NCBI GenBank assembly: GCA_043819695.1
Contig: JBDREM010000360.1
Location: forward strand, 1 to 50,515
Reading direction: 5' to 3'
Source of the DNA: Planctomycetota bacterium
GTDB taxonomy: Bacteria; Planctomycetota; PUPC01
DNA: 50,515 bases
Positions 32,930 through 50,411 of the stretch are shown here, in pieces. Positions within the stretch are counted from its first letter, which is position 1. Each line of letters starts with the position of its first letter. The notes beneath the pieces are model-generated. The model was not told the DNA's origin. It was given only the letters and a program-made list of their open reading frames with translations, and ran no database searches. The position numbers and the translations under genes are program-made.

Positions 32930-33646
32930 CTACTCCCCGGCCTCTTCCTCCAGGTAGAGGATTCTGGCGCAGGAGTGGCAGAAGACGAGGTCGGTGCCTT
33001 TTCTGAGCTGTGCCATCGTCTCGGGCCTGAGTTTCATGAAGCAGCCCTGGCAGGTGCCGTCGACGACGGCGACCATCGCGGTGTGGCCGCGCCGTTGGAT
33101 GAGTCTCTGGTACTTGGCGAGGATGTCGCGCGGGACGTCCCTGGTCACGGCCTCGCGTTTTTTTCGGAGCTTCTGCACCGTGTTGCCGATCTCGCTGAGG
33201 TCCTTCTGCAGAGCGGCGTCCTCGTCGGCGAACCCCTTTTCGGTTTTCTTGATCTCGGCGGCGATGGCGTCGCGCTCCCCCCTCTTCTTGTCGCTCTTTT
33301 GCATCTCGATCAGAACGGCGTCTTCGAGCCGGGTGTTGTCGGCTTCTTTGGAGAGGATCTCGTGCTGGAGCGCCTGGAATTCCTTGTTGGATTTCGCCTG
33401 TGCGATCTGCTCCCGGAACTTGATGACCGCCTGTTCGGCGGCCTTGAGTTCGTTTTCTTTCAGGGCGTTTTTTGCGAGCAGATCCTTGAGTTCGGTGTCC
33501 TTCTTTTTGAGCTCCCCGCGGGCTGCTTCGAGGCTCTTTTGCTTTTCTTCTATTACTTTCGGAATGTTTTTTTGTTGTGCTTCGAGTTCGAGAATTTTCG
33601 CATCGAGCGCTGCGACCTGTTTCAGCGCCTTCAAGTCTCCTGACAT
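32930..33646 (-). CDS. Coiled-coil protein with C-terminal C4 zinc ribbon (COG1579-like)
   Basis: The 238-aa product starts MSGDLKALKQ. A long heptad-rich region is followed by CQGCFMKL...CHSCARILY. The 543-aa ORF in the track is an upstream extension across rpoD in another frame. Confidence 0.8.
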   Translation of the reverse strand: MSGDLKALKQVAALDAKILELEAQQKNIPKVIEEKQKSLEAARGELKKKDTELKDLLAKNALKENELKAAEQAVIKFREQIAQAKSNKEFQALQHEILSKEADNTRLEDAVLIEMQKSDKKRGERDAIAAEIKKTEKGFADEDAALQKDLSEIGNTVQKLRKKREAVTRDVPRDILAKYQRLIQRRGHTAMVAVVDGTCQGCFMKLRPETMAQLRKGTDLVFCHSCARILYLEEEAGE

Positions 33647-33669
33647 CAACGCCTCCTGGAAAGGGCCCG

Positions 33670-35339
<1,670 letters not shown>

Positions 35340-35340
<1 letters not shown>

Positions 35341-37229
35341 CAGAGGGCAAGTACCTCCCTTTGCAGTCTCATATGTTCGCTGATGAGTTCAGACACGGAG
35401 CCCTCATCACCCGATGCCTTTGCCGCTTCGAGTTCTCTTGTGACCGCGCGGATTTTTGTTTGAATGCGTCTTCTCATGAGCGTTCGCACGCAGTCCAGCC
35501 CCGCCTGGGCGCCGTCGGCCCGCGGCTCCGCGCTCACGACACCCGAGACGAGCGACGCCGCCTCAGTGCTCTGGAGCGCCCCGAGCAACTGCTCGCCATG
35601 TACTGTACCGTCGGAATCGTGCGCATCTTTCATCATTTGAAAGAGCGAGCGGAGAGTCTCGTTCGTGAAGTCGCTCGCGGCCACTTCGTCAAAGATGCGG
35701 CCGGCCAGGTCGGGCACGGTCAGGACCGCCTCGATGACGCCAAGCTCGGCGGGGTCGTAGCTGATTGCGGGCCGTGCCGGCTCTTCCGGGGCGCCCGGCC
35801 GGCGGCGGCTTCGCCGCTCGATCTGTGCCAGGCGCGCCCGTACGACGCGATCCTCCAGGTCGAAGGCGTCCGAAAGCTTTCGGACGGCGGCGTCGACGGC
35901 CAATTGCCGCCCGACGGCGTTCGGGATCACGGCGACCAGCCCGAGCACGTCGTCCACCGCCTTGGTCTTGCCGTCGACGGTCGACGCGTCGTGCCGCTGC
36001 GACACGATCTTGATCTTCCGCGTGACCACGTCGTCGCCCGCGTCGAGCGCCTTCACGAACGCATCCGCGCCCTGGGCGGCGATGAGGTCGCAGGGGTCGT
36101 TCCCGTCTTCGAGCGTGACCAGCCGAACGTCGAAGCCTGCGGCGAGGAACTCGCCCGCGCCTTCGTTCAGAAAGAGCTCCATGCTCCGCTCCGCCGCCTG
36201 CTGTCCGGCCGCGTCGGAATCGAACACGACGTCGATCCGTTCGGCGAACCGCCGAAGGACGTGGATGTGCTCGCGCGTGAGCGCCGTGCCGAGCGTCGCG
36301 ACGACGGCCATGCAGCCGTGCTGGTGCGCCATGATCACGTCGGTGTACCCTTCGACGACGGCGGCCTGTTTGTGGTCGACGATGGCCTTGCGCGCCCAGT
36401 TGAGCCCGTAGAGGTTGCGCCCCTTGCTGAAGATCGGCGTCTCCGGCGTGTTGATGTACTTCACCTCGCTGTCGCCCATCGTGCGGGCGCCGAGACCGAT
36501 CACGCGCTCCTGCGTGTCGAAGATCGGGAATATCAGGCGGTCGCGGAACCGGTCGTAGCACGAGCCGTCGTCTCGCCGGATCGCAAGCCCGGCCTTGCAG
36601 AGCACGTCGGCCGGGATGTCGGCGGACTCGGCCGCGCGGATCAGCGCGTTCCAAGAGTCGGGCGAGTAGCCCAGGCCGCACCGCTCCGTCATCTCGTCCG
36701 ATATCCCGCGGGCCTCGATGTATTCCCGCGCTGCCTGGCCCGCGGCGCTCGCCAGTGTCTTCGCGTAGAAGTCGGCGGCTCGGCGGTTCGCGTCGTACAG
36801 GAGCTCGCGTTCGGTCCGCGCCGTCTCCTGGGCCGGGGTGGGCTTGCGCGCCTCCGGGATTTCAATCCCGGCCTCCTTGGCGAGGGTCCGCACGGCCTCG
36901 GGAAACGACACGCGGTCCATTTCCATCACAAAGTGGAACACGTTGCCGCCCTTGCCGCAGCCGAAGCACTTGAACGTTTGCCGCGAGGGCGTCACGATGA
37001 ACGAGGGCGTCTTCTCCTTGTGGAACGGGCAAAGGGCCTTGAAGCTCGCGCCGGTCTTCTTCAGCGAGAGGTACCTGGAAACCAGCCCAACGATGTCGAC
37101 GGAATCGCGTACGCGGCTGATAATGTCTTCAGGTATGAAGCCGCTCAAATCCTGTGCTCTGAGGTAAGCCAAAGGATGGGGGCAGCGACTGCGCCGTGGT
37201 CTCCGACCGCCGGGAAGGCCGAAGGGCAC
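35340..37229 (-). CDS. dnaG: DNA primase
   Basis: Zinc-binding block [37 protein letters not shown], then a TOPRIM block VVEGYTDVI...[10 protein letters not shown]. The stop overlaps the rpoD ATG by 1 nt. The true start may be downstream (TTG at 37148, LSGFIPEDI), because the first ~27 codons are unlike primase. Confidence 0.92.
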
Positions 37230-37767: not shown

Positions 37768-38376
37768 ATGGAGCGAGAAGAAAAGTCGGCCTTGTTCTTG
37801 GTGCTTCTTGCTGCGCTCGTGGCGGCCGGTGCGGGCTGCCGCGGCGGCCAGGTTCCGGCGGCTGCCTCCGACAAAGCGCTGGCGGGCGCGCAAATCACGA
37901 TGCTCGATGATTTCGACGGCGCGTTCTCCTGGACGCTCGAGAAGGACTGGGGCGATCCTGCGGCCGTGGAAGCGGCGGCGGGCGCGATGGTCGTCCGGCT
38001 CGAGCCGGGCTCAAACACGAAGAGCACGGTCAGCCGCGCGCTGGCGCCGCCGCGTGACCTCTCGAAGCACAACGCCGTCGTCGTCGACATCACCAGCGAG
38101 CTGAATACCGATTGCCTCGTGGGCCTCGCCCTGATCACCACGGCCGAAGGGACGTTCATTGAGACGCCGTCGGCCGTCGTGCATCCCGGTGCGAACAGGA
38201 ACATCGTTTTCCGGCTCGACGGACGGGCCTTCAAGAGCGCCGTGAGCAACTGGGAGCACAATCAGCCGGCCGGCGACCTTTCGGCCGTGCATAAGGTCAT
38301 ACTGCTCGTCTCGCCGAAGTCGTCCGGTGTGGTCCGAATCGACAACGTGCGGCTGGCCATCCTGCCAAAGCGGTGA
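37768..38376 (+). CDS. Lipoprotein with carbohydrate-binding-module-like beta-sandwich (function unknown)
   Basis: AGGAGG RBS 6 nt upstream. The lipobox is LVAAGAGC. The body ends ...SGVVRIDNVRL, as in CBM-type domains. The ORF-track start at 37282 is an upstream extension through non-coding repeats. Confidence 0.7.
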   Translation: MEREEKSALFLVLLAALVAAGAGCRGGQVPAAASDKALAGAQITMLDDFDGAFSWTLEKDWGDPAAVEAAAGAMVVRLEPGSNTKSTVSRALAPPRDLSKHNAVVVDITSELNTDCLVGLALITTAEGTFIETPSAVVHPGANRNIVFRLDGRAFKSAVSNWEHNQPAGDLSAVHKVILLVSPKSSGVVRIDNVRLAILPKR

Positions 38377-38461: not shown

Positions 38462-39727
38462 TCAATCTCCCGGCGGCTGTTGGCCGACCACGCAGACGGC
38501 GCCGCACGCCGGGCACTTGGCGCATTTACCCGCATGGGCGGCGGCGGCGCGGAGCTTGGTCCCGCAGGAGGGGCACTCGACGAGGAGCCACTGAGCGGAG
38601 TCCGGCGGCCGGCCCGGCCCGGCGCATTTGGTGCACCGTTCGGTGGCGTCATCGAAGTGATCGGCGCAGAAGGCCTTCCCGCACTGCGGGCAAAGCCGGG
38701 CGTGCGCTGTGCACAGGACCTGCTTGCACGCCGCGCACTGCGAGACGTGGTTGACGCAGACGCGGGCGCCGCACTGGGAGCACTCGAAAGCGCAGTCGGC
38801 ACAGGCGGCGGAGCCGCAGATCGAGCACCGCTGCACGTGCTCTTCGCACAGGGCCTTGTTGCAGCTTGCGCACGTGGCGGCGTGTTCGACGCAGACCGCC
38901 TGGCGGCAGACGGCGCACTGCCGGACGTGGTCGAGGCACACCTGCCGGCCGCACTTCGAGCATTTGATGATGCAGTCGGGACAGCCGGAGTTGTCACAGA
39001 GCGAACAGGTTCCGATGTGGGTCTTGCAGGTAACCTGAGCGCACTGGGGGCACGTGCCGCTGCACGCCTTGCACACGACATGTTCGCACACGGGGCACGT
39101 CCGGGGCTTGCAGAGCAGGCACAGGGATCGCTGGCAGCTTTCGCAGACCACGACGCAGTCGGCGCAGACGGAGTGGCCGTTGACGCAGCGCGTGATGGTT
39201 CCCCTGCGGCCGCGGCAGTTCTGGCACTCTCCCTCTTTCGCGGCGCTCCGTTGGATGTCCGACCAGGCGGAGGGCGAGAAGTCCCTCGGGTCGGTCGGCA
39301 CGAGGCCGGTGTTCTCGTCGACCCATCGCGCGGCCGCGCCGTTCAACGGGCTCTTTGTGTTGTAGCTCTGATAAGCCAGCATCTCGCCGATGCGGATGAT
39401 GAGGTTGAGGAGGGATTCGCCGGCGGCCCAGTGGTCGCCGATGCAGATGGCATGCGGCGCGATGTTCGGATGGAAGACGGGGGTGAGCATTCGGCACTGT
39501 GGCGCCTGGCGGGGGTAACCGAGTGTAAGGTAAATCTCGGCCAGGTGCTCGAGCCGTTCGGTGACGTCGCCTTCGGCGGTCTCGTGGAGGCTTCGGACCT
39601 TGAACTCGATCTGGTACCGGTCGGGCGGGCTGCCGGAGACCCCTCGGACGCGGAAGGCCGGGTGGTCCCGGAGCCCCTCCTTGATCTCTTCGTAGTCGGC
39701 TTGTATCCGTCGGAGTCGAACGCTCAC
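38462..39727 (-). CDS. Ubiquitin-conjugating enzyme (E2/UBC-fold)-like protein fused to a ~245-aa Cys-rich zinc-binding tandem array
   Basis: Residues 1-135 read RLRRIQADYEEI...YQIEF...YPRQAPQCRMLTPVFHPNIAPHAICIGDHW...LLNLIIRIGEML, giving the HPN motif plus a candidate catalytic Cys94. Residues 168-413 hold about 11 tandem 15-aa modules C-x2-C-x4-C-x2-[HC]-x3, followed by a terminal zinc ribbon. The GTG start forms a GTGA overlap with the upstream gene. Confidence 0.8.
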   Translation of the reverse strand: MSVRLRRIQADYEEIKEGLRDHPAFRVRGVSGSPPDRYQIEFKVRSLHETAEGDVTERLEHLAEIYLTLGYPRQAPQCRMLTPVFHPNIAPHAICIGDHWAAGESLLNLIIRIGEMLAYQSYNTKSPLNGAAARWVDENTGLVPTDPRDFSPSAWSDIQRSAAKEGECQNCRGRRGTITRCVNGHSVCADCVVVCESCQRSLCLLCKPRTCPVCEHVVCKACSGTCPQCAQVTCKTHIGTCSLCDNSGCPDCIIKCSKCGRQVCLDHVRQCAVCRQAVCVEHAATCASCNKALCEEHVQRCSICGSAACADCAFECSQCGARVCVNHVSQCAACKQVLCTAHARLCPQCGKAFCADHFDDATERCTKCAGPGRPPDSAQWLLVECPSCGTKLRAAAAHAGKCAKCPACGAVCVVGQQPPGD

Positions 39728-41001
39728 TGCTGCTCGTCCCGGGTTTCTTCCTTCGGCGTCGAAGGGGTCATCTGGAGCTTCAGCGCTCCGTGTTCTTCAA
39801 TGAGCGGGATGAGGTCGGAGACCACGATCGAGAAGCTTATGCCGGCGGCGGTGCCGCGGCCTGCCGTGAAGGTGTTGATCCCGATCAGGCCGCCGTCCTG
39901 CCTGTACAGCCCGCCCCCGCTGTTCCCGGGATTGAGCGGCAGCTGCATCTGGATGATCCGCAGTATCTTCTCGCCCAGGTCGTTGCGCCGTATCGCCGAG
40001 ATGACTCCCTTGCCGTACGACCAGCCCAGGCCGAGCGGATTGCCGACGGCGAAGACGGATTCGCCGATGTTGAGCGTCGGGCTCGAGGCGACTTGGGCGG
40101 TGTCGAACGAGCTCTTGCCCGCCGGGCACGTGAGCAACGCGATGTCGATGCCGGTGGGCGCCCGCCACTCCACCTTCGCCTCCTTCTGCGTGCCGTCCGC
40201 GAAGGTGACCGTTATCGCCGGCGGCCCGCCGGAGAACAGCCCATCGGCCCCGTTGATGACGTGGCGATTGGTGATGATGACCACACGGCCCTGCTGGTTC
40301 GCGAGGATTACGCCGGACCCCGCGGACATCGAGCCGCGCCCGCCGGCAACAATCATCACGTTCGCCCGGATCGCCTTCCGGATAGACTCCGGGATGGTGG
40401 AGGCGTCGTCTATGCCGTAGACCTGGTCGGGCCGGATGAGGCCGGGCGGCTCGAGCGGCATGGTCGTGTCGCGCTGGCTCAGGTAAAAGAGACAGAAGCC
40501 CGCGGCCCATGCCACGATCTCGACCACGCCCACGATGACCGCGGCCGCCGCGAACCCCATCCCCTTCAGGTCGCGGCGCGAGTTGATGAAGCCGACCGCA
40601 ATGGACCCGAGCACGATCGCCAGAAAGCCCGGCACACCGAACGCGAACAGGCCGACGATTGCGCACACGAACGCCACCACCGCCAGAACGCTCAGGCGCC
40701 TCCGGCCCGGCGAGACGACCGGCGACCAGCCGGGCGGCACGACCCGCGGCGGCTGCGGCGGAGCCGGCGTCCGGGCAACGTCCTCCGCAGTGACGACGAG
40801 GTCCGGCTGGGCCCGTCCGGCGGGCGACGCACATTCGTATGCGTGGCAGCGGCCGCTCTCGATCCAGCAATGCTCGTGCTGGATGTGGCCGCAGATCGGG
40901 CAGGACCCAACCGTCTGCCCGGACCGGATGGCCTGCTGGCAGCAAGGACACAACTGGCCCTGCTGCAATTTGCCGGCGACGAACATCTCAGGATTCGACA
41001 T
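39724..41001 (-). CDS. C4HC3 RING/PHD-like finger - TM segments - trypsin-like (S1/HtrA-like) serine protease fusion
   Basis: The N-terminal finger is CPCC-x12-CPIC-x4-H-x2-CW-x5-C-x4-C. Hydrophobic segments follow (LSVLAVVAFVCAIVGLFAFGVPGFLAIVLGSIAV, AAAAVIVGVVEIVAWAAGFCLF). The protease triad context is TNRHV / DIALL / GNSGGG. Confidence 0.8.
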   Translation of the reverse strand: MSNPEMFVAGKLQQGQLCPCCQQAIRSGQTVGSCPICGHIQHEHCWIESGRCHAYECASPAGRAQPDLVVTAEDVARTPAPPQPPRVVPPGWSPVVSPGRRRLSVLAVVAFVCAIVGLFAFGVPGFLAIVLGSIAVGFINSRRDLKGMGFAAAAVIVGVVEIVAWAAGFCLFYLSQRDTTMPLEPPGLIRPDQVYGIDDASTIPESIRKAIRANVMIVAGGRGSMSAGSGVILANQQGRVVIITNRHVINGADGLFSGGPPAITVTFADGTQKEAKVEWRAPTGIDIALLTCPAGKSSFDTAQVASSPTLNIGESVFAVGNPLGLGWSYGKGVISAIRRNDLGEKILRIIQMQLPLNPGNSGGGLYRQDGGLIGINTFTAGRGTAAGISFSIVVSDLIPLIEEHGALKLQMTPSTPKEETRDEQQ

Positions 41002-41046
41002 GTCTGCCCCGATCGGCTGTCCCTGTGAAAAACGTGCCCCCTGCTG

Positions 41047-41775
41047 CTACATGACCACTGTAAACAGGATTATACTGTAAAACAAGCTCAATATCACCGA
41101 GCCATACGCAAGAACTTCGTGCGGCCCCCCGGCCCTCCGCAGCGCCTTGCGGGATCGCCAGAGCCAGATCGGGGCGACGAACACAAGGATGGGGGCCGGG
41201 ACCCCGAGGACGCTGAGCGCGAACAGAACGATTGCCTGGGTGCGGACCCGGCCGAGTTGCGACTCCGACGTGCCCCACGCGCGGTACTCGGCGCTCGTCA
41301 TCGGAACGGGCGACGGGAACCGGGCCTTGCAGAAGCGGCACTTGACGGCCACCGAACGAATGGGTTTCCCGCATCGCGGGCAGGCTTTCTCGTCGCCCCA
41401 TCCGCCCTGCCCGTCGGCCGCCTCGTCCTCCGGCTTCGGCGCCTTGGGCATGAGCTCGCAGCCGTAGGTCGCGCAGCCGCCGATCTCGTCCCAGCACTCA
41501 CGATGATAAGCAGCGCGGCACTCGGAGCAGGAGCAGGCCGTGTCGCCGTGCGCGATTGGCGTGCGGCACACCACGCAGACCTGTCCGGCCAGTTCGCCGG
41601 ACCCGGCCGAGAGCGGCCCCCTTGCCGCCGCGGGCGCTGCATCGGCTGCGGCGCCGTCGGCCGCGGGGACCGTCGCGACCCGGCCGCACTTGGGACATTT
41701 CGCGCGCTTCCCCGCGGCCGACGCCGGCGCCGAAATCCGCTGCCCGCATTTGCAGTTGTAGATGATCTGCATCAC
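41047..41775 (-). CDS. Zinc ribbon - C4HC3 RING/PHD-like finger - zinc ribbon - TM protein (E3-like paralog 1)
   Basis: The finger is CVVC-x12-CSEC-x4-H-x2-CW-x5-C-x4-C. The flanking ribbons are CKCG...CPKCG and CPRCG...CRFC. The C-terminus has hydrophobic helices. The start is GTG at 41775 or ATG at 41772. Confidence 0.75.
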   Translation of the reverse strand: MMQIIYNCKCGQRISAPASAAGKRAKCPKCGRVATVPAADGAAADAAPAAARGPLSAGSGELAGQVCVVCRTPIAHGDTACSCSECRAAYHRECWDEIGGCATYGCELMPKAPKPEDEAADGQGGWGDEKACPRCGKPIRSVAVKCRFCKARFPSPVPMTSAEYRAWGTSESQLGRVRTQAIVLFALSVLGVPAPILVFVAPIWLWRSRKALRRAGGPHEVLAYGSVILSLFYSIILFTVVM

Positions 41776-41799
41776 ACATGTCCCGCGCGCCGCGGCCCG

Positions 41800-42594
41800 C
41801 TACATCGAGCTCGCCGCGATCAGGTTAATAATGATGTACAGAAGGCACACGACAAAGCCAATGATGCCTAGGATTATCCCGGCCGTCGCCATCCCTTTGC
41901 CGGCTATCCTGCCGCGGCTCGCCCTGATCTCCGTTTGCGCGCTCAGGCCCAAGCCGATAGCAATGATGCCGGTGATGACGCCGCAACAGATGAAGGAGGC
42001 GATGCCGAGAATGAGCGAGGCGATCGCCTTGCCGCTCGTGCTCGCCGGCGCCGCACGGGCGCGTCCCGGGCCGGCGGCGAGGAACTCGCCGCAGTGGCGG
42101 CACTTGACGGCGGAGGCGGCGATCTGCTCGCCGCAGAACGGGCAGGGCTTCGTGCCCGCGCCCGCGGCGACGGGCGCCGGCGCCTGAGCAGCGGCCGGCT
42201 TCGGCGCAATCTTCGGCAGCGGCGCGTTCGCGCACGAGGCCGTGCCGCAGCCGCCGTTCGACTGCCAGCACGAATCGTGGAAAGACCGGCCGCACTGTTG
42301 GCAGTTCCGCACCGCCTCGCCGAGACTGATGGCGTTGCCGCATATCGTGCACGTCCTGCCGGCGACCGCGCGGTTGGCCGCCATCTGCTCCGGCAGCCCG
42401 TCGGCGCCCGGCCCGGCGGACAGCGGCTCGGCGGCGGCCGGCTGATGCTCGGGCTCCGGCGAGACGGGCGCGGCGGCCGCATCCGGCACGCGGATCGTGG
42501 CCCCGCAGTCCCGACACTTGCCCGACCGGCCGGCTGCGTCTTCCGGAACGGTGTATTGCTTGCCGCACTTGGGACACTCGACGATGATGCTCAT
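41800..42594 (-). CDS. Zinc ribbon - C4HC3 RING/PHD-like finger - zinc ribbon - TM (DUF4190-like) protein (E3-like paralog 2)
   Basis: The finger is CTIC-x12-CQQC-x4-H-x2-CW-x5-C-x4-C. The flanking ribbons are CPKCG...CRDCG and CPFCG...CRHCG. The C-terminus has two Gly/Ile-rich TM helices. Confidence 0.75.
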   Translation of the reverse strand: MSIIVECPKCGKQYTVPEDAAGRSGKCRDCGATIRVPDAAAAPVSPEPEHQPAAAEPLSAGPGADGLPEQMAANRAVAGRTCTICGNAISLGEAVRNCQQCGRSFHDSCWQSNGGCGTASCANAPLPKIAPKPAAAQAPAPVAAGAGTKPCPFCGEQIAASAVKCRHCGEFLAAGPGRARAAPASTSGKAIASLILGIASFICCGVITGIIAIGLGLSAQTEIRASRGRIAGKGMATAGIILGIIGFVVCLLYIIINLIAASSM

Positions 42595-42733: not shown

Positions 42734-44110
42734 CTACGACGCGCCGCGCGAACGCTCCGCATACTCGAGGACCGTCTGCCCGAGCACGATCTGATCGCCG
42801 TCCTTCAGCGGCTGGCGCCGCGCTTTCTTGCCGTTGACGATCGTGCCCGCGGGCGTGCTGAGGTCCTCGATCTCATGCCGGTTGCCCACCTTGCGGATCA
42901 GCGCGTGGCGCGGCTCGACGGCGGGGTCCTTGAACAGATAGACCTCGCACTTGGGCGAGCTGCCGAGCGCCGTCGGGCTCTTGTAGATCACGAACTGCTT
43001 GCCGGCGAGCGGGCCGGCCCGCATGAGCAGCCAGGCGTCCTTCGACAAGTGCTCGACGAGGCCGATCATGAAGCCGGCGGCCACGCCGATGATGCCGAAG
43101 CCGAACGCGCGGCTCATCAGGGCCTGCCCGCCGAGGTCGGTATTGGCGAACAGCTTGATGATCGGCTCGAAGCACATGCCGCCGAGCAGCGCGCCGAGCA
43201 GCCCGCCGAGCAGCCCGTTGATCACGAGCTTCTTGCTGCGGAGTGCGACGCCGTGGCCGAGGCCGACCGAGAGGCCGAACACGCCCCACGCCAGCGAACG
43301 GCCTATGACGAGCGCCATAAACGGCCAGCCGGTCAGCGTCGCGCTGGTCCACATGCCGTCGCCGGCCAACCCCTGCACGATCACCTGGGCGAGGCCGAAG
43401 ACCAGGCCGGCCGGGATGAGCCCGACGAGCCCGCCGGCCGCGGCGATCCCGATGCCCGTGATGCAGCACAGGAAGCCGCGGCGCAGGTTGCGCGACATGA
43501 CGCCGTCGGCCGCGGCGACGCAGCCCGCGATACACGCGCCCACGATGGCGAACGCGAGCAGCCGGGACACTAGCTGCAACGCCGAGGCATCGTCCAAATT
43601 CGGCAACGGTTCCTGGTCGCGGCCCGGCGGAATAGCCCGGACCGACACGCGTTCTGCGAAGAGAATGCGGTTGTCCGCATCCGCCACAAACGCCTGCACC
43701 CGGACAGGCTGGCCGGTCTTCAGCTTCCCGACGCCGTTGACCTCGGCGTACTCGCCGCGGCCTTCGATACGGGTGGCTTGGCTGTCGAGATGAAGCTGAA
43801 CGCCGCGGACGGCGATCACGGTCTGTGCAGTCGGCCGCAGCCCCGGCCACTCGGCTTCCTTGACATACTCGATCTTGCCCCAGACGACGATCGACTCGTT
43901 GAAGAGCGGCTCGAGTACGGCCCACCCGGCGATCCCGCCGATGAGGCCGGCGACGGACAGGAAGAACAAGCTGTTGAAGACGATTCGCCGCCAGAGGCTC
44001 GTCGGCCCGAATTCGCCCATCGGGCGCAGCAGGGCTTGCTGCTCGGCGACAATGTCGTCGATCCTCGGCGAGAACAGCTCGTCGCGGGTGATCCGGATCT
44101 TGTCAGGCAT
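42734..44110 (-). CDS. Polytopic membrane protein with C-terminal FHA (phosphopeptide-binding) domain
   Basis: Several Gly-zipper-like TM helices are present. The C-terminal ~95 aa read ...GSSPKCEVYLFKDPAVEPRHALIRKVGNRHEIEDLSTPAGTIVNGKKA...LKDGDQIVLGQTVLEY, the FHA pattern (G-R/S...S-x-x-H...N-G). Confidence 0.8.
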   Translation of the reverse strand: MPDKIRITRDELFSPRIDDIVAEQQALLRPMGEFGPTSLWRRIVFNSLFFLSVAGLIGGIAGWAVLEPLFNESIVVWGKIEYVKEAEWPGLRPTAQTVIAVRGVQLHLDSQATRIEGRGEYAEVNGVGKLKTGQPVRVQAFVADADNRILFAERVSVRAIPPGRDQEPLPNLDDASALQLVSRLLAFAIVGACIAGCVAAADGVMSRNLRRGFLCCITGIGIAAAGGLVGLIPAGLVFGLAQVIVQGLAGDGMWTSATLTGWPFMALVIGRSLAWGVFGLSVGLGHGVALRSKKLVINGLLGGLLGALLGGMCFEPIIKLFANTDLGGQALMSRAFGFGIIGVAAGFMIGLVEHLSKDAWLLMRAGPLAGKQFVIYKSPTALGSSPKCEVYLFKDPAVEPRHALIRKVGNRHEIEDLSTPAGTIVNGKKARRQPLKDGDQIVLGQTVLEYAERSRGAS

Positions 44111-44212: not shown

Positions 44213-45517
44213 TCAGGGCTCGAGGCGTGGAGCGAACTCGACGGCCATGTCCCGGAGGCGCCTGGCCAGTTCGAAGCGCGCCGCGGCCCCGTCATCCTTC
44301 GGCTGCGAGAGCAGGTACTGGGCCTCGTTCACGCACACTTGGGCCAGCCGCGTCTTCAGCAGGTCCAGCTCCTCCGGTAACGTAGCGACGAGGTCCATCT
44401 GCCTGGCGATACGCTCGGCGGACAGGTACCGCTCGGCCATCTTGCCCACGTGGCCCTCCGCCTGTCGGAGCGTCAAGGCGGCGCTGTCCAGCCGCTGCAG
44501 CGCCTCGGCCTTGAACCCTGCGGCCGCTTCGCCCTGATCGCCGGAGAATTCTTGCTGCGAGAGGTCCGTCCGCACGAGCTCGATCCGCTGGGAAGCGCGG
44601 TTCAGCGCGAGCAGCACGGTCGCCAGCTCGCGGTCCAGCCCGTCGCGGAACAGCCCGGCCCGGATGAGGTCCTCGACCTGCTTGCGCTGATCGTTGAGCG
44701 ACCGCCGGAACACGCTGCCGGGCACGAACCCGCCCAGCCAGAACACGACCAAGACGGCGATGGCCCCGAAGATCGCCCACATGGCCAGAGACTTCGCGTC
44801 GGCTCTCGATTCGTCGGGCTCGACCCGCGCCGGCGAGTACAGACGTTCGCGTTCCGGCTCTTCGCGCTCGTCTTCGGCCGCCGCGGCGGCGTCCTGTCCG
44901 CCGGGCGCGGCAGTCTCGAGGTCGTAGCAGAGCTCGCCGCCGATCCAGTAGCGCCGCAGCCGTTCGGAGCGGCCCTCGCGCCAGTAAAAAATCCCCTTCG
45001 CCTCGGAACAGGGGTCGTACACGAGCGCGACGCTGTGCGGGGCGTTGAAGAAGTTGTCCTGTATGAACTGGTCCATGTCGGAGAGGAACACGCCCAGCCC
45101 GGGGTGCGAGTGATACCAGCCGACAATGCGGAGCTCGGGGAAGCGGTCTTCCATCACCTGATGCACGTGCTGCCAGGTCTCGTGGGTGAAGGTGACCTGC
45201 GAGCCGCTGCGGCGTGTCGCCGCGCCCTCGATGACCTCTTCGACCAGCAAGTATGGGCCGCCGGAATCGGTCAGGATTCGCCCGGCCAGCACGCCGCACT
45301 GCTCGACCGACGTGTCGCTGTCCGCGTGGTCCTTGACGGCCTCGAAAGCCTTCTCGGCAACGGCGACGCGATAATCGGCCGGCAGCGAAGGGAAGTCGCG
45401 CGATTCCAGCTCGGCCGCGTCGATCTGGCTCACGTCCGTCTCTGGGGCGTCGGGGGCGTCGTCCGTCTCCGGCGCTTGCTCGTCGCGAGCTTCCTTCTTT
45501 CTCTTCTTCCTTGTCAT
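44213..45517 (-). CDS. JAB/MPN+ (JAMM) metalloprotease with TM helix and long C-terminal coiled coil
   Basis: The JAMM motif is intact: E72 (VEQCGVLAG) ... GWYH136SH138PGLGVFLS146DMD149. A TM helix LAMWAIFGAIAVLVVFWLGGFV follows, and then a helical region of about 170 aa. Confidence 0.85.
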   Translation of the reverse strand: MTRKKRKKEARDEQAPETDDAPDAPETDVSQIDAAELESRDFPSLPADYRVAVAEKAFEAVKDHADSDTSVEQCGVLAGRILTDSGGPYLLVEEVIEGAATRRSGSQVTFTHETWQHVHQVMEDRFPELRIVGWYHSHPGLGVFLSDMDQFIQDNFFNAPHSVALVYDPCSEAKGIFYWREGRSERLRRYWIGGELCYDLETAAPGGQDAAAAAEDEREEPERERLYSPARVEPDESRADAKSLAMWAIFGAIAVLVVFWLGGFVPGSVFRRSLNDQRKQVEDLIRAGLFRDGLDRELATVLLALNRASQRIELVRTDLSQQEFSGDQGEAAAGFKAEALQRLDSAALTLRQAEGHVGKMAERYLSAERIARQMDLVATLPEELDLLKTRLAQVCVNEAQYLLSQPKDDGAAARFELARRLRDMAVEFAPRLEP

Positions 45518-45526
45518 GGGACCTCC

Positions 45527-46741
45527 TCACTCCTCGCCCGTCTCGCCGGCGAGTTCGCCGAGCGCGGCTCGCTCGTCGCCGGCCATAAGGTACCCCACGG
45601 CGCGCAGGCCGCTTCGGCCGACGAGGATGTCGAACGGCGGCAGGCCGATCTCAGCGGGCGTAAGGTCCAGGAAATCGTCCTGGCCGCCGACACTATGGAG
45701 CAGTTGGGGAAAGCGCATCTCGCCGCACGCGGGGCACCGCCCCTGCTCTTCGCTCACCTTCCCCAGCGAAACGAAAACGGTCTCGGCCTCGCCGCACTTC
45801 GGGCATTCGAGTTGGCGGATCACCTCGCGGCTCAGCTCGATGACCGCGTCGGGGCCGAGGTCCGCGCGGGCGCGCGCCAGGAGGCCGCCGAGCGTGATGT
45901 CGCTCGACCGGTCGGGCAGTTCGATCATCTCTCCGAGCGTCTCGTGCGCGAGGCAGTCCTCCTTGCGGGGGTACGACACGCCGTAGACCTCGCCGCTCTG
46001 CCCGTTGATGGTGAGCCCCGCGCCGCCGCGGACCTCGAGGCGGTGCAGGTACTTGAGCATCTCCTGGCACTGGAACCCGGCGACGATGGACGAGATTGTC
46101 GCGGTCGTCGGCGTGTGGCCCTCGAGCATCTCCTCGCGGCTCAACAGGGCGCACGAGCGCCGGGCGTCGAGCATCTGCCAGTCGATCTCGTTCATTGTGC
46201 ACTCGTAGCACGCGCCCAGGCCCGGCCGGAACATCCGCACGACGCCGTCGAGGCGCTCGATGGCGCCGTCGATCCAGGCGCGGCCGACCTTCAGGCAGGC
46301 CCGGTTCACCGCGACGCGCGCCTCGCGGTTGTCCAGGCCGCAGATGACCACGTCGGCCCAGCGAAAGACACCGAGGCCGAGGTCGTGGACCACGTTGCCG
46401 TCGAATGCCCGCGCCCGGGTGCCGGGGTGCATCGCTCTCACCCGCGCCGCGGCGACCTCGGCCTTGGGCTTGCCGATGTCGTCCTCGCGGAACAGCACGC
46501 TGCGCGCCAGGTTCGAGTTCTCGATGCGGTCGAAGTCGGCAATGAACACAGAGCCGATTCCGACGAGCGCGAGGTTCTTGAGGATCTCGTTCCCGAGCGC
46601 TCCGGCGCCGATGACGAGCGCCCTCGAGCGTTCGAGCCGGGCCTGGTCCCACCATTCGATGAGCTCCTGGCGGCTGAAGCGCCCCTCCCCGCAGGCCGCC
46701 TTTCCGAGCTTTATGACGTCGTTCATGCGCCTCCCCGTCAA
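45527..46741 (-). CDS. ThiF/MoeB/E1-like ubiquitin-like-protein activating enzyme
   Basis: ALVIGAGALGNEILKNLALVGIGSVFIADFDRIENSNLARSVLF (nucleotide-binding and Arg-finger-type blocks), then CGLDNREAR and GACYEC. The C-terminus carries a ribbon CPKCG...CPACG. Confidence 0.88.
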   Translation of the reverse strand: MTGRRMNDVIKLGKAACGEGRFSRQELIEWWDQARLERSRALVIGAGALGNEILKNLALVGIGSVFIADFDRIENSNLARSVLFREDDIGKPKAEVAAARVRAMHPGTRARAFDGNVVHDLGLGVFRWADVVICGLDNREARVAVNRACLKVGRAWIDGAIERLDGVVRMFRPGLGACYECTMNEIDWQMLDARRSCALLSREEMLEGHTPTTATISSIVAGFQCQEMLKYLHRLEVRGGAGLTINGQSGEVYGVSYPRKEDCLAHETLGEMIELPDRSSDITLGGLLARARADLGPDAVIELSREVIRQLECPKCGEAETVFVSLGKVSEEQGRCPACGEMRFPQLLHSVGGQDDFLDLTPAEIGLPPFDILVGRSGLRAVGYLMAGDERAALGELAGETGEE

Positions 46742-46765: not shown

Positions 46766-47044
46766 CTAGCAACGCTGGCCCGCTGTGATTTCGGCCTGCA
46801 ACCGCACGACGTCCATGTCCTTGACGCCAGCCTGGGCCAGCGTCTGATCGTCGAGCAGTTGGCGGCCCGTCGACTTGTGATGGAACTTGTAGCTCATCAA
46901 CTGTCCGTCGGGGCTGTTTCGCGGCAAGTTCATGCGGTTGACCAGCACGGCGATTATGCGGTTGACCGGAGCGTCGTCCGGCACCTCCGCCGTCTGGCGC
47001 TTGTTACCCGTAGCGTCCCATACCTCGAGCGTTATCATACCCAT
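46766..47044 (-). CDS. Small ubiquitin-like (beta-grasp-sized) protein ending ...EITAG-QRC
   Basis: 92 aa with a GGGAGGAG RBS. It is the first gene of the E1/JAB/E2 operon. Gly89 is followed by a 3-residue tail. The fold itself is inferred from size, pattern and context only. Confidence 0.7.
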   Translation of the reverse strand: MGMITLEVWDATGNKRQTAEVPDDAPVNRIIAVLVNRMNLPRNSPDGQLMSYKFHHKSTGRQLLDDQTLAQAGVKDMDVVRLQAEITAGQRC

Positions 47045-47114: not shown

Positions 47115-47142
47115 ATTCTAGTTGACCCGTATCTTGTGTCAA
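47115..47142 (-). promoter_or_regulatory. Sigma-70-type promoter candidate for the Ubl-E1-JAB...E2 operon
   Basis: The minus strand reads TTGACA (47142-47137), a 16-nt spacer, then TAGAAT (47120-47115). It lies about 70 nt upstream of the Ubl ATG. Confidence 0.45.
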
Positions 47143-47424: not shown

Positions 47425-47907
47425 TTATGCCTTTCGTTTCCTGTTCTTTTTCCCGCGCGAAGATGCCGGTGACTCGCCGTCAATTCGGGCACGGAAAAGT
47501 CGGTAGTGTCGCTTGACTCGTTCAACATAGGCCTCGTCGCCCAACAGAACGTCGTGCGCAAGATCGAGAAGGCTGTCGGCCAACTCGGTTTGGGGGCTCC
47601 CAAGATTAAGGCTTGGCCCGATGAGTTCCGCAATCATCTCCGGATCGTCATCATGCAACCAGTTGGCGTAGAATTCGGGGGACTCCCAGCCCCAAGCAAT
47701 GACGGCCTCCGGCCCCTTGCGAGAGGATGCCACGACATAAAAGAAAACACGTCTGCAGTCACATGCACGTTCATTACAGAACATCTCGCAGAACGCGTAC
47801 TGACCTGGAGGCAGTCCGGTCTTGGATCTATTTCCAAACACGGTGAGGGTTCGCGTTTCCGGCTCTGCAATCTCGGGAAAGAGGTCATGAAAAAGCTGGT
47901 ATGGCAT
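47425..47907 (-). CDS. Hypothetical protein (160 aa), Cys-motif FCEMFCNERACDCRRV, basic C-terminal tail
   Basis: It is the only long ORF here with coherent composition. GC is visibly lower than in the neighbours. I recognise no family. Confidence 0.55.
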   Translation of the reverse strand: MPYQLFHDLFPEIAEPETRTLTVFGNRSKTGLPPGQYAFCEMFCNERACDCRRVFFYVVASSRKGPEAVIAWGWESPEFYANWLHDDDPEMIAELIGPSLNLGSPQTELADSLLDLAHDVLLGDEAYVERVKRHYRLFRARIDGESPASSRGKKNRKRKA

Positions 47908-48101: not shown

Positions 48102-48464
48102 TCAGGTGGGCGAACTGCCGGGCGCCGGCGGGACCAATGGCTCCAGTCGCTCAATCAGTTCCGGGATATGGCGCGTCACAACGGCCCAGATTCGTTCCTG
48201 GCGGATGTCACCGTATTCGTGGGCGAGCACGTTGCGCTGTGCGATGATGGGGCGCCAGGGGATTTCGGGATGCGCTTCGCAGAGGGGCTCGGACACGCGG
48301 CGGGCGGCTTCGCCGATGATCTCCAACGCTCGCTCGACCGCGAGTTGAAGGGTGCGGTTCTTCAAGTAGGCGTCAAGGGCCTGGTGCTTGGTGATTTCGC
48401 GGATCGTCTGCGCGGTGTCGAGCATGTCCCAAAGATGAGCGGCGTCGCGTTCGTCAGGCCGCAT
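48102..48464 (-). CDS. hepT: HepT-like (DUF86) RNase toxin of a type VII/II TA pair
   Basis: The R-x4-H-x-Y motif appears as IIAQRNVLAHEYGDI. The protein is 120 aa and overlaps the upstream nucleotidyltransferase gene by 11 nt. Confidence 0.85.
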   Translation of the reverse strand: MRPDERDAAHLWDMLDTAQTIREITKHQALDAYLKNRTLQLAVERALEIIGEAARRVSEPLCEAHPEIPWRPIIAQRNVLAHEYGDIRQERIWAVVTRHIPELIERLEPLVPPAPGSSPT

Positions 48465-48756
48465 AGAGGATCTTCCGACTGCTCAGGATGGCGTGGCGGC
48501 GAAACGGATTGCGAAGCCCATCTCTTTCAACAAGGTCAACTTCGCGCCCGAAGATCTCACTGAGTTCGTCCATCATCGCAGCGAAGTCAAACAGACTCCA
48601 CTGGGCGTTCTCGGTGAAGCTGACCAGCACATCGACGTCGCTGTCGGGCCGGAAATCGTCGCGAAGCGCAGAGCCAAACAGCGCGAGTTCGACGATCTTC
48701 CACCGCTCACAAAACGCGGCGATGCGGGCCCTGTCCACGTGAATGTCCGGGCTCAT
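48454..48756 (-). CDS. mntA: MntA-like minimal nucleotidyltransferase antitoxin
   Basis: The G-S-x10-12-D-x-D motif appears as LFGSALRDDFRPDSDVDVLV. The ATG at 48756 (MSPDIHVD) is preferred over the ORF-track start at 48792. Confidence 0.85.
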   Translation of the reverse strand: MSPDIHVDRARIAAFCERWKIVELALFGSALRDDFRPDSDVDVLVSFTENAQWSLFDFAAMMDELSEIFGREVDLVERDGLRNPFRRHAILSSRKILYAA

Positions 48757-48848
48757 CGGTCGATCCTCCGGCTTGCCAGGCGAACGCGGCACGCGCCGCC
48801 GACACGATCAATGATAGCCCCCGTACTCGGTCAAATCAAGGCGGGAAC

Positions 48849-50411
48849 TCAATTCTCAGGGCCGTCGCGCTTGCATTCTTCGGCCTTTGGCTTGACGTTG
48901 CGCTTCTCGACGGCGAAAAGGCGGAAGACGATGTCGTCCTTGCGGTCCTCGGCTGTGTAGCTCTTGTCTTCCACGCCGCCGTCGTCGCGCTGGTTCATCC
49001 CGATGCTATAGACGATGCAGTCGCCGTCCATCTGTCTGTATTTCAGCGGCTTGCCCGAGAACGGGTCCAGCAACTTCTCGTCTTGAAGCTCGCTCAGCGC
49101 ATTGGGCCATTTGCCGTTTTCGATGCGACAGACTTCCGCGCTTAGCGCCGTCGCGGCAGCGACAAGGCGCGCCTGGTACTGAATACACTCCAGATCCCAT
49201 CTCGCCCAGCTTGCTGCAATCTTCGCGGTGTCGTCCGATTCTGCCGTCACTCCACGCAGCCTTTGCGTTGCCCTTGCTGCCCGGTCGTGGGAAGGCGCCG
49301 GGAGAGCGTCGTACTCCCTTAGAAAGAACTTTGCTTCATCCATCATGTCGAGGCGGTATGCTCCAGGGCATACGGATACCCACGCCGAGAGCAACCGCAG
49401 GGGCCACATGCGGTCAGGTGAAACCATCATCCGGGCATCGGGCCTGTCCATGAACGCCTGCCACCTGCACCGCCCCGGGAAGTCCTGAGCGACGACAGCC
49501 ATCTGCTCGTTACGATGAACGGCCGATGCCATGCTGAAATGGGGGTGCTTCAGTTGCATCGCAACGTACGCTATCTCAGCCTTTATCATTTCTGTGATGC
49601 TCGTGCTCTCGGACTCCAGCAAGAGCTTGGAACGCAGGGCCCGGAGACTCTCGATACTTGGCGTTGTCCGGCTGAGAGTTTGCTCGATACTCTTGCACAG
49701 GTAACGTCCATTCGATGCCTGAAAAAGCTTCACCGCACACCACGGCTGATTGCGGAGCGACAAGTTGATGTCCACGATGGCTTCGCACGCGTCGAGCGCC
49801 CCTTCCGGCCGGCCCAAGGCCTGCTCGTGCAGGCTCTTCACGCAGAGCGTTCTCGCCGCTTGGCGGGCATCTCCAAGAAAGGCGCTCGCCTGAGACTCGC
49901 GGGTGTTGAAATCGAGGTTGTAGAAACAGCGTCGGTGTTTTCGCGCCGTCGCCAGAAGTGAGAAGAAGGCTCGTTGCTCGTCCAGGAACGTTGCCATCTT
50001 TACTTGCCGTTCCCTGTCGATCGGCTCACCCAGTTCGGGCATGTCGGCCGAGCCGACACAAGGCACGCTCATCTCGTACGCCTCGTCCTCGCCCAGCGCC
50101 GCGAAGGCCGCTTCGTAGAATCGAGCTGCGTTCTTGCCATTGACGGAGGCGCCGAATTCTTTCTTGAGGTAGTATGTGTCGGTGGGCAGGCCGCGCCGGT
50201 CAAGTTCCGCGAGGATCTCTTCGAGGGCGGCCTCGCCACGACGATTGGTGTTCCAGACCCAGCCGGCAAAGAGCAGGACGCAGAGCGCGAACACTACCGA
50301 CAGCGCGCACAGCGTCCGAAGCGGCCACTTGAGCCATCTCAGCCACCGCCATCTCGATTTCCTGTGTCCCTCCGATGGGCTCGTCGAATTCGCGTCCGCG
50401 TTCATTGGCAT
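48849..50411 (-). CDS. Hypothetical membrane-anchored protein (520 aa) with pseudopilin-G-like C-terminal motif
   Basis: The N-terminal TM helix is LRTLCALSVVFALCVLLFAGWVW, followed by a helical body. The C-terminus DPFSGKPLKYRQMDGDCIVYSIGMNQRDDGG resembles the DPWG-x-PY...Y-x-L-x-S-x-G-x-D-G end of GspG-type proteins. GC is lower than in the core. Confidence 0.6.
   Translation of the reverse strand: MPMNADANSTSPSEGHRKSRWRWLRWLKWPLRTLCALSVVFALCVLLFAGWVWNTNRRGEAALEEILAELDRRGLPTDTYYLKKEFGASVNGKNAARFYEAAFAALGEDEAYEMSVPCVGSADMPELGEPIDRERQVKMATFLDEQRAFFSLLATARKHRRCFYNLDFNTRESQASAFLGDARQAARTLCVKSLHEQALGRPEGALDACEAIVDINLSLRNQPWCAVKLFQASNGRYLCKSIEQTLSRTTPSIESLRALRSKLLLESESTSITEMIKAEIAYVAMQLKHPHFSMASAVHRNEQMAVVAQDFPGRCRWQAFMDRPDARMMVSPDRMWPLRLLSAWVSVCPGAYRLDMMDEAKFFLREYDALPAPSHDRAARATQRLRGVTAESDDTAKIAASWARWDLECIQYQARLVAAATALSAEVCRIENGKWPNALSELQDEKLLDPFSGKPLKYRQMDGDCIVYSIGMNQRDDGGVEDKSYTAEDRKDDIVFRLFAVEKRNVKPKAEECKRDGPEN

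Follow-up and report, generated by a model that had tools for sequence, protein, structure and literature searches.

Here we describe three adjacent finger proteins, named A, B and C, which are encoded in a 50.5-kb stretch of DNA from a public Planctomycetota metagenome-assembled genome. The whole of this stretch is called the window below. The three genes belong to an eight-gene operon on the minus strand, in which Pfam profiles, hydropathy and sequence motifs identify, in this order, a ubiquitin-like protein (Ubl), an E1, a JAB peptidase, a protein with an FHA domain, C, B, A and an E2. An earlier note on the same DNA, made from its letters, had pointed to A, B and C as related membrane proteins with an identically spaced zinc finger, and had proposed them as candidate ligases (E3) paired with the E2. 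The three proteins and their parts are located as follows.

39724 to 41001, minus strand: finger protein A, 425 amino acids, with finger, membrane region and serine protease
40831 to 40950, minus strand: finger of A, residues 18-57, CPCC..CPIC..H..CW..C..C
40468 to 40704, minus strand: DUF4190-type membrane region of A
39787 to 40389, minus strand: HtrA/DegS-type serine protease of A, without a PDZ domain
41047 to 41775, minus strand: finger protein B, 242 amino acids
41686 to 41754, minus strand: N-terminal zinc ribbon of B
41458 to 41577, minus strand: finger of B, residues 67-106, CVVC..CSEC..H..CW..C..C
41329 to 41382, minus strand: second zinc ribbon of B, C132/C135/C146/C149
41050 to 41241, minus strand: two hydrophobic segments of B
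41800 to 42594, minus strand: finger protein C, 264 amino acids
42505 to 42576, minus strand: N-terminal zinc ribbon of C
42232 to 42351, minus strand: finger of C, residues 82-121, CTIC..CQQC..H..CW..C..C
42091 to 42144, minus strand: second zinc ribbon of C
41803 to 42039, minus strand: DUF4190 membrane domain of C (57.5 bits)

In the NCBI record of the contig, A is named only 'trypsin-like peptidase domain-containing protein' and C 'DUF4190 domain-containing protein'.

Finger motif and paralogy of the three proteins

The finger was searched as the regular expression C..C.{12}C..C.{4}H..C.{6}C.{4}C in all six frames of the window. There are exactly three matches, all on the minus strand and one in each of the three adjacent genes. 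All three also have a Trp directly after ligand 6, which gives the common motif C-x2-C-x12-C-x2-C-x4-H-x2-C-W-x5-C-x4-C. The pattern, the Trp and the ligand strings that had been quoted for this locus are exact. The window has a G+C content of 62-70% and numerous long spurious open reading frames (ORFs) on both strands, which raises the question whether the shared pattern could have arisen by chance from Cys-rich or GC-rich sequence, or from wrongly called ORFs. With the residue frequencies of the six-frame translation (Cys 2.7%, His 2.4%), chance would give about 2e-8 matches, against the three observed. The ligands are furthermore invariant across 109 fingers, and homologues of the ORFs are found in hundreds of contigs. 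The probability left to such an explanation is negligible, and we regard it as refuted by the match count, the chance estimate and the invariance of the fingers.

An alignment of 58 finger sequences shows no change in the eight ligands or the Trp, and one of 29 B sequences likewise has all eight ligands unchanged. Across 54 related loci, they are kept in every one of the 109 finger ORFs, 105 of which also keep the 12/6/4 ligand spacing. In the A-type finger of one related locus (L013, 10608-11879), ligands 6 and 7 are closer together, with C-W-x3-C against the usual C-W-x5-C. This shows that the x6 spacing is nearly, but not absolutely, fixed.

Judged by their sequences, A, B and C are true paralogues, and their likeness extends well past the finger. 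In blastp comparisons B and C share 38% identity over 170 residues (E 5e-32), A and C share 27% over 202 residues that span finger and membrane domain (E 2e-15), and A and B share 42% over the finger (E 2e-8). B and C have a common plan, consisting of an N-terminal ribbon, a linker, the finger, a second ribbon and two C-terminal hydrophobic segments. In A the finger forms the N-terminal part of the protein and no ribbon lies ahead of it. Hydrophobic segments C-terminal of the finger are found in all three proteins by hydropathy, and Pfam DUF4190 matches A and C. Taken with the helices in the structural model of A described below, these results agree with what had been claimed, both for the paralogy of the proteins and for their entry into the membrane.

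The zinc ribbons had been described as MJ0042-type, and this description holds in part. The N-terminal ribbons of B and C are alike in blastp and weakly MJ0042-like. That of C scores 24.4 bits on PF13717 (Zn_ribbon_4), under the cut-off of 30.3 bits, B has no PF13717 match, and at E <= 0.01 there is no match to MJ0042 (TIGR02098) in NCBIfam. We take PF13717, and also PF13719 and TIGR02098, to be MJ0042-type models; some homologues of C and some homologues of E2 carry PF13717 or PF13719. The ribbons that follow the finger in B and C are of another kind and match Zn_ribbon_3, DZR and UPF0547. The further claim that a similar ribbon closes the E2 tail proved correct. In blastp the N-terminal ribbon of B (residues 10-36) is 56% identical to the C-terminal ribbon of E2 (388-414, E 4e-6), and that of C (3-32) is 43% identical to it (381-410, E 2e-5), over 27-30 residues.

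Family assignment and fold of the finger

Of the Pfam families, the one that best matches each of the three proteins is PF14446 (Prok-RING_1), which we take to be the prokaryotic RING finger family 1 of Burroughs, Iyer and Aravind (Mol Biosyst 2011). The whole proteins score 30.7 (A), 38.0 (B) and 33.5 bits (C), above the gathering score of 29.1 bits, in the kind of profile search that the earlier note had proposed. The isolated finger of B reaches 42.6 bits, and all 38 isolated fingers sampled from the family match PF14446. Precomputed annotation also places PF14446 on 54 homologues of B and on most homologues of A. On these profile scores, the fingers of A, B and C are members of prokaryotic RING finger family 1. 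Bacterial versions of the family reportedly carry transmembrane helices, which agrees with the hydrophobic segments of A, B and C, the DUF4190 matches and the helices in the model of A. With the rest of the family the window fingers share the C4HC3 order, the longer last ligand pair and a neighbourhood with Ubl, E1, E2 and JAB, and nothing defining differs. A review describes prokaryotic RING domains as C4HC3 fingers whose last ligand pair holds a longer insertion (PMC11354881), and the C-x4-C found here at that pair agrees with this.

The C4HC3 order had been read as the signature of PHD and RING-CH fingers. The order itself stands, but membership in either family does not. The RING-CH consensus is C-x2-C-x(10-45)-C-x-C-x7-H-x2-C-x(11-25)-C-x2-C. 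The spacing here, x2/x12/x2/x4/x2/x6/x4, differs from it by x2 and not x1 between ligands 3 and 4, x4 and not x7 before the His, and x4 and not x2 in the last pair. The placing of the Trp, immediately behind ligand 6, is a further difference. RINGv is not among the best 25 Pfam families listed at E <= 1, either for the whole proteins or for the isolated fingers. We have therefore rejected RING-CH/RINGv membership, with the ligand order as the one feature in common. In PHD fingers, ligands 3-6 are spaced C-x2-C-x4-H-x2-C and a Trp stands two residues before ligand 7. In our fingers ligand 7 is preceded by Gly-Gly or Gly-Arg, and the invariant Trp instead follows ligand 6. Against the PHD profile (PF00628), C reaches 14.3 bits and the finger of B 16.5 bits, both below the cut-off of 24 bits. 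Membership in the PHD family was rejected on these scores and on the position of the Trp.

For the fold, the finger of B (61 residues) was modelled with AlphaFold2 from a 58-sequence alignment. The model has a mean pLDDT of 84.8 and shows a beta-hairpin, followed by a helix that starts at the His/Cys ligand pair. The matches that Foldseek lists for it in the PDB are nearly all binuclear RING-H2, PHD or C1 fingers. They include the RING-H2 fingers of RNF38, RNF165, RNF24, RNF13, EL5, RMR1, RNF12 and ZNRF1, the PHD fingers of TAF3, Pygopus, PHF1, BPTF and MLL3, the RING of Slx1 and an atypical C1 domain. The nearest solved structures by sequence profile are the RING-H2 of EL5 (E 1.3e-5), a PHD finger, RNF126 and Pygopus. 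This profile search of PDB sequences was made with an alignment of the finger only, full-length rows being dominated by the protease domain, and it found no solved member of the PF14446 family. The C2H2 zinc-finger arrays at the top of the same search were disregarded, as their scores are sums of many weak partial matches. From the model and its relatives, a two-zinc cross-brace would be expected, with ligands 1, 2, 5 and 6 around one zinc and ligands 3, 4, 7 and 8 around the other.

A different function for such a fold would be that of a PHD- or C1-like binder of a peptide, a lipid head group or the Ubl, which tethers or regulates membrane components while the E2 acts without an E3. The C4HC3 order and the C-x2-C-x4-H-x2-C spacing of ligands 3-6 do fit the PHD consensus, there are weak Pfam matches to PHD, C1_1 and FYVE, the Trp is placed unlike that of RING-H2 fingers, and TAF3, Pygopus, PHF1, MLL3 and the atypical C1 domain are among the best matches by fold or sequence. 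The matches to PHD, C1, FYVE and also zf-RING_2 are nevertheless all far under their curated cut-offs, whereas PF14446 is above its own. RING-H2 fingers (EL5, RNF38, RNF165, RNF13, RNF126) match equally well. PHD fingers moreover belong to chromatin and not to a conjugation operon, and the loop between ligands 6 and 7 is here six residues long. In more than 50 loci the fingers are strictly linked to E1, E2, Ubl and JAB and no other E3 candidate is present, which an E3 role fits best. We consider it unlikely that the fingers are binders of the PHD or C1 kind.

Among eukaryotic proteins, the closest resemblance in design is to membrane RING ligases, such as MARCH/RING-CH proteins, PA-TM-RING proteins (RNF13, RMR1) and the ligases of endoplasmic-reticulum-associated degradation (ERAD), for example Hrd1. 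These combine a cytoplasmic binuclear finger with a transmembrane anchor. The RING-CH proteins share the C4HC3 order, and the PA-TM-RING proteins RNF13 and RMR1 are among the structural matches. The likeness is one of logic and not of membership.

The operon and its relatives in other genomes

The remaining genes of the operon, the parts of the E2 and a promoter-like site are listed here.

46766 to 47044, minus strand: Ubl, 92 amino acids, YukD/EsaB family (PF08817, 35.7 bits, cut-off 27)
45527 to 46741, minus strand: E1-like adenylating enzyme, 404 amino acids, ThiF (175.9 bits), C-terminal zinc ribbon
44213 to 45517, minus strand: JAB/MPN metallopeptidase, 434 amino acids, JAB (43.3 bits) and Prok-JAB (31.0 bits)
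42734 to 44110, minus strand: polytopic membrane protein with C-terminal FHA domain, 458 amino acids, FHA (46.3 bits) at residues 382-444
38462 to 39727, minus strand: E2, 421 amino acids, UQ_con (31.9 bits, cut-off 27)
39308 to 39727, minus strand: UBC core of the E2 with HPN...Cys95 (HPNIAPHAIC at residue 86)
38624 to 39226, minus strand: Cys-rich array of the E2, residues 168-368, between UBC core and ribbon
38504 to 38575, minus strand: terminal zinc ribbon of the E2, resembling those at the N-termini of B and C
47115 to 47142, minus strand: promoter-like site, TTGACA-16-TAGAAT (consensus scan, 11 of 12 matches; a pattern match only)

The start of the E2 gene overlaps the stop of A by 4 bases, and the contig record (NCBI) names the product ubiquitin-conjugating enzyme E2. 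The E1 has the nucleotide loop GAGALG at residue 45. The JAB protein contains an intact JAMM motif, HSHPGLGVFLSDMD, at residue 136, and we predict that it both processes the Ubl and removes it from its targets. A hydropathy peak marks one membrane helix in the JAB protein at residues ~239-271. The roughly 160 residues past this helix (~272-434) have no Pfam match and would be periplasmic if the helix crosses the membrane once. In the FHA protein, several hydrophobic segments lie within residues 42-356. The promoter-like site is a candidate for the operon promoter, situated about 70 bases upstream of the Ubl start codon.

The Ubl, which NCBI names EsaB/YukD family protein, ends in ...LQAEITAG-QRC. 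Its sequence predicts a modifier that needs removal of the three-residue tail QRC. The ending ...LQ(P/A)EITAG is kept in 25 related loci, with tails after the motif that range from none (L034 and L041) to about 160 residues. A Gly end that stays fixed while the tails behind it vary is the hallmark of modifiers that undergo processing ahead of activation, and the JAB peptidase is the obvious predicted enzyme for this step. In four loci (L016, L020, L023 and L050) the Ubl is fused in frame to a zinc ribbon and a DUF4190 membrane module, which is the same module as in the finger paralogues. These fusions point to a membrane-tethered precursor that requires cleavage.

Between its UBC core and its ribbon, the E2 carries an array of about a dozen tandem 15-residue units, C-x2-C-x4-C-x2-[H/C]-x3, and the last 256 residues of the protein hold 50 Cys. 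No Pfam family matches the array. Orthologous E2 proteins range from 276 (L003) to 476 amino acids (L001), which marks the array as a variable insertion.

A scan for related loci, with one genome per species, gave 51 loci, to which three metagenome loci were added. The genome loci are mostly from Planctomycetota, including Isosphaerales, Planctomycetales, Gemmataceae, Schlesneria, Fuerstiella and the cultured Aeoliella straminimaris, with a few from Acidobacteria and Myxococcota. The order Ubl, E1, JAB, FHA protein, one or more finger genes, finger/protease gene and E2 is conserved in the whole set, and the FHA gene is found at the same place in all complete loci, by which we mean those whose interval from FHA gene to E2 is entire (n=27). 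Among 1.84 billion representatives, 131 clusters at 50% identity match the B-family profile at E <= 1e-30. Homologue clusters number 54 for B, about 45 for the architecture of A (finger, DUF4190, protease) and about 11 for the RING-bearing C.

Two finger genes are present in 25 of the 27 complete loci; one further locus has four and another has five, while the window has three. Nearly every Planctomycetota locus has the B-type gene next to the A-type gene, and their order does not change. C-type copies are restricted to the nearest relatives (L001, L004 and L005), and C-like copies are also found in the loci outside Planctomycetota. On these comparisons of sequence and gene order, B and A are conserved orthologue classes that are present nearly everywhere, and C is a lineage-limited extra copy. 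The earlier note had drawn from three ligases paired with one E2 the conclusion that there are several substrate classes or a hetero-oligomeric ligase. The arrangement of three per E2 is not conserved, and with two as the conserved number and C as an extra copy this conclusion needs revising.

In Acidobacteria and Myxococcota (L038 10532-11833, L041 5977-7290, L048 9343-11790) the protease protein has no RING and carries a plain four-Cys zinc ribbon at its start. It also has more membrane segments, and two separate RING proteins are still present in the operon.

RING-less paralogues, at least one per locus, separate the FHA gene from the B-type gene in most related loci (for example L003 9371-9940, L006 9219-9905, L009 8327-9091 and 9221-9982, and L011 9367-9897). 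Their layout is an MJ0042-like ribbon, an acidic linker, a second ribbon, a Lys-rich stretch and a membrane domain. The operon of the window has none of these paralogues, and the RING-bearing C gene occupies the slot instead. A small DUF2752 membrane protein with a CxxC motif is encoded downstream of the E2 in at least 30 related loci (for example L001 13570-14010 and L003 12847-13302). It has no counterpart anywhere in the window, nor in the closest relative, L004.

Topology, proposed function and genomic neighbourhood

The protease half of A matches Trypsin_2 with 86.6 bits. The finger ligands, the Trp and the catalytic triad H247/D286/S361 are invariant in 37 sequences of A. The AlphaFold2 model of A has a mean pLDDT of 85 and contains helices at residues 105-117, 123-141 and 148-178. 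Full-length A finds only HtrA proteases with Foldseek, the best being Rv0983 of M. tuberculosis, DegP, DegQ and DegS (E ~1e-16 to 4e-17), and reaches a TM-score of up to 0.8 against the protease domain of DegS. By its sequence, the C-terminal half of A is a PDZ-less relative of HtrA/DegP/DegS (S1C). With DegS and HtrA it shares the Trypsin_2 fold, the invariant His, Asp and Ser and the membrane helices N-terminal to the protease. It differs from them in the lack of a PDZ domain, in the N-terminal RING finger and DUF4190-type hairpin, which take the place of a simple anchor, and in being encoded in a Ubl operon.

Hydropathy gives no N-terminal hydrophobic segment in A, B or C. In A the first segment starts past residue 100, in B and C past about residue 180. 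Basic residues are found ahead of it and in the short loop that follows it, where most A orthologues have two to three. In A the segment is 36-41 residues long and is split in the model, at G-V-P-G, into the helices 105-117 and 123-141. Eight A orthologues have a segment stretched to 51-65 residues, by an insertion exactly at this break. The simplest topology that gives all orthologues the same sidedness would be a helical hairpin that runs in-out-in, a cytoplasmic basic loop and one helix that leads out. With such a hairpin and one outgoing helix, the protease of A and the C-termini of B and C would be periplasmic. For the protease of A we think this location quite likely, and it agrees with the structural relatives (HtrA, DegP, DegQ and DegS), which are all extracytoplasmic. 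The fingers are expected to be cytoplasmic, as they are rich in Cys and must meet a cytoplasmic E2.

The PF14446 scores, together with an operon that encodes Ubl, E1, E2 and JAB, support the central reading of the locus, namely prokaryotic RING-type fingers in membrane-anchored candidate E3 proteins for the neighbouring E2. We hold it to be probable that A, B and C are membrane-anchored Prok-RING_1 members which serve, in this eight-gene operon, as E3 adaptors for the Ubl-charged E2 (E2~Ubl). Homology and gene context suggest ligase activity for the fingers. In the proposed mechanism, the JAB peptidase would trim the YukD-like Ubl and expose the Gly of ...EITAG, after which the E1 would adenylate the Ubl and hand it on to the E2, at Cys95. 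On the inner side of the cytoplasmic membrane, E2~Ubl would then be docked by the cytoplasmic fingers of B, C and perhaps A, which would act as RING-type E3 adaptors toward membrane or membrane-proximal targets. C, the extra copy, would most likely widen the range of targets. In A the cytoplasmic finger would be coupled, via the helical hairpin and one transmembrane helix, to the HtrA/DegS-like protease, most likely in the periplasm, and thus the machine would span the membrane. The FHA protein could provide phospho-dependent recognition or a scaffold. Docking of the E2, stimulation of Ubl transfer and the formation of heteromers by the fingers are likewise putative. Candidate roles of the system are membrane-protein quality control, envelope signalling and defence.

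Several points weigh against this proposal. For the finger of B, Foldseek gives E values of 0.06-0.5, none of them at or below 0.001, and TM-scores of 0.4-0.57, and does not separate RING, PHD and C1 folds. Such values are usual for the model of so small a domain, but they do not discriminate. The Trp directly follows ligand 6, whereas in RING-H2 fingers it lies four residues after it, and neither A nor B nor C has a basic 'linchpin' residue after ligand 8. The first hydrophobic segment of B has only 27-35 residues, which is short for two membrane passes and leaves room for an alternative topology with a cytoplasmic protease. In the searchable literature we found no experiment on any bacterial Prok-RING_1 member. 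Finally, the residue before ligand 2 in A fingers is H, C, R, A, E or another, and aliphatic in 1 of 60.

This position deserves attention, as we take the residue before ligand 2 to be an E2 contact in canonical RINGs (Ile383 of c-Cbl). In 66 of 71 B fingers it is I, V or L, and in all of 11 C fingers it is hydrophobic; in the window the first ligand pair reads CVVC in B, CTIC in C and CPCC in A. The class difference suggests a division of labour, with B and C as E2-recruiting fingers and A in another role, possibly as a partner in a heteromer. The finger of A may not bind the E2 in the manner of canonical RINGs. One form of this idea, which competes with three independent ligases and is compatible with the general E3 explanation, is a heteromeric ligase. 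In it, B (and C) would recruit the E2, and the finger of A would dimerise with B, or regulate or position the protease, comparable to the pairs of active and inactive RINGs in eukaryotes. The adjacency of B and A in nearly all Planctomycetota loci, the two finger genes in 25 of 27 complete loci and the difference between B and A before ligand 2 argue for it. On the other side, RING-E2 contacts differ among families, and the Acidobacteria and Myxococcota have a ribbon in place of the A finger and yet two RING proteins, which means that the pair need not be A plus B. We see the heteromeric ligase as a real possibility, although with somewhat less than an even chance.

A more far-reaching version would be a trans-envelope Ubl machine, in which a heteromeric membrane ligase, with the finger of B recruiting the E2 and that of A as its non-canonical partner, is physically coupled across the membrane to the periplasmic HtrA-type protease, with the polytopic FHA protein and the membrane-anchored JAB peptidase as further parts. 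We put this forward as a tentative idea, and rather doubt it. If true, tagging in the cytoplasm with a YukD-like Ubl would be linked to proteolysis or sensing across the membrane, in a bacterial counterpart to the ERAD-like control of membrane proteins or to envelope signalling of the DegS type. In the searchable literature we found neither a proposal in this form nor a test of it.

Complete cascades of E1, E2, RING E3 and deubiquitinase were long regarded as eukaryotic. RING-containing Ubl operons of the present kind have been known from comparative genomics since 2011. In their abstract of that year, Burroughs, Iyer and Aravind reportedly described prokaryotic RING E3s as partners of E1, E2, JAB and Ubls, and the conjugation of YukD-like Ubls as a possibility; both points fit the locus. 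Their work has been cited for related uncharacterised operons in Actinobacteria, Planctomycetes and Acidobacteria (PMC4197634), and bacterial RING-containing operons were still uncharacterised in 2023 (PMC10557695). As finger family and operon type are already catalogued, the finding is in itself ordinary. The classes B, A and C, the norm of two copies, the loss of the aliphatic residue in A, the RING-less paralogues and the fusions of Ubl, ribbon and membrane module were worked out here and may already be published.

The only experimentally tested prokaryotic model of such a cascade that we found in the searchable literature is the operon of Caldiarchaeum subterraneum. It encodes ubiquitin, E1, E2, a small RING finger protein and Rpn11, and its reconstitution in vitro revealed a stimulating effect of the RING on the cascade (Hennell James et al. 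2017, PMC5654768). Both operons are compact, with one Ubl, an E1, an E2, a RING-type E3 and a JAB/MPN peptidase. The RING of Caldiarchaeum subterraneum is soluble, single-copy and of the RING-H2 type (C3H2C3), whereas the operons described here have two to five membrane-anchored C4HC3 fingers. They also differ in their YukD-like modifier, which is not ubiquitin-like, in the FHA membrane protein and in the fusion of finger and protease.

The window is a clean and intact example of a RING-containing bacterial Ubl operon. The comparison of 51 genomes adds testable specifics, namely a pair of finger classes that differ at the E2-contact position, a trans-membrane fusion of finger and HtrA-type protease and an EITAG Ubl that requires processing. 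A cultured carrier for experiments exists in Aeoliella straminimaris ICT_H6.2 (locus L022). If the fingers are active ligases, membrane-bound RING ligation would be shown in a minimal bacterial setting.

Whether the operon could serve in defence is best discussed with its neighbourhood, which includes the following genes.

32930 to 37229, minus strand: dnaG primase, rpoD (sigma-70) and a CT398-like coiled-coil protein with a C4 zinc ribbon
48102 to 48792, minus strand: HepT-like ribonuclease (PF01934, 86.5 bits) and minimal nucleotidyltransferase (PF01909, 68 bits)

Bil, Bub and CBASS Cap2/Cap3, for which anti-phage roles are either demonstrated or proposed, also conjugate a bacterial Ubl with E1, E2 and a JAB-type peptidase, but they are soluble and without a RING E3, unlike the operon of the window. 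Other bacterial operons of E1, E2, Ubl and deubiquitinase are anti-phage, and the same has been predicted for the uncharacterised RING-containing ones (PMC10557695). An anti-phage function of the Bil or CBASS-Cap2 kind, with fingers that direct the Ubl onto phage proteins at the membrane, is therefore to be weighed. It would fit the copy number of C-type and RING-less paralogues, which differs between close relatives, and the HepT/MNT pair about 1 kb upstream. Directly downstream of the operon, however, are dnaG, rpoD and the CT398-like gene, which places it in a housekeeping neighbourhood and not in an obvious mobile island. Its gene order is fixed across whole Planctomycetota orders, including chromosomes of 2-8 Mb. 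With such neighbours and such an order, it looks like a vertically kept cellular system. The core parts are moreover membrane-embedded and include a periplasmic-type protease, which suits control of the envelope or of membrane proteins.

PADLOC models match the generic E1 and JAB domains only, the E1 domain matching the E1-E2 and BilD models at domain level, and the fingers, the E2, the Ubl and the FHA protein have no relevant match in PADLOC or NCBIfam. Membership in Bil, CBASS Cap2/Cap3 and 6A-MBL was rejected, with the catalytic domains of E1 and JAB as the only matches. We judge an anti-phage role improbable, and prefer the reading of a cellular system in which membrane-anchored fingers act as E3 adaptors.

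The two genes of the HepT/MNT-type toxin-antitoxin pair upstream of the operon overlap by 11 bases. Three neighbouring ORFs have no Pfam match at E <= 0.001, namely 47425-47907 (minus strand, 160 amino acids), 48849-50411 (minus strand, 520 amino acids) and 37774-38376 (plus strand, 200 amino acids). The second of these has an N-terminal hydrophobic segment, and the third a lipoprotein-like signal, LLAALVAAGAGC.

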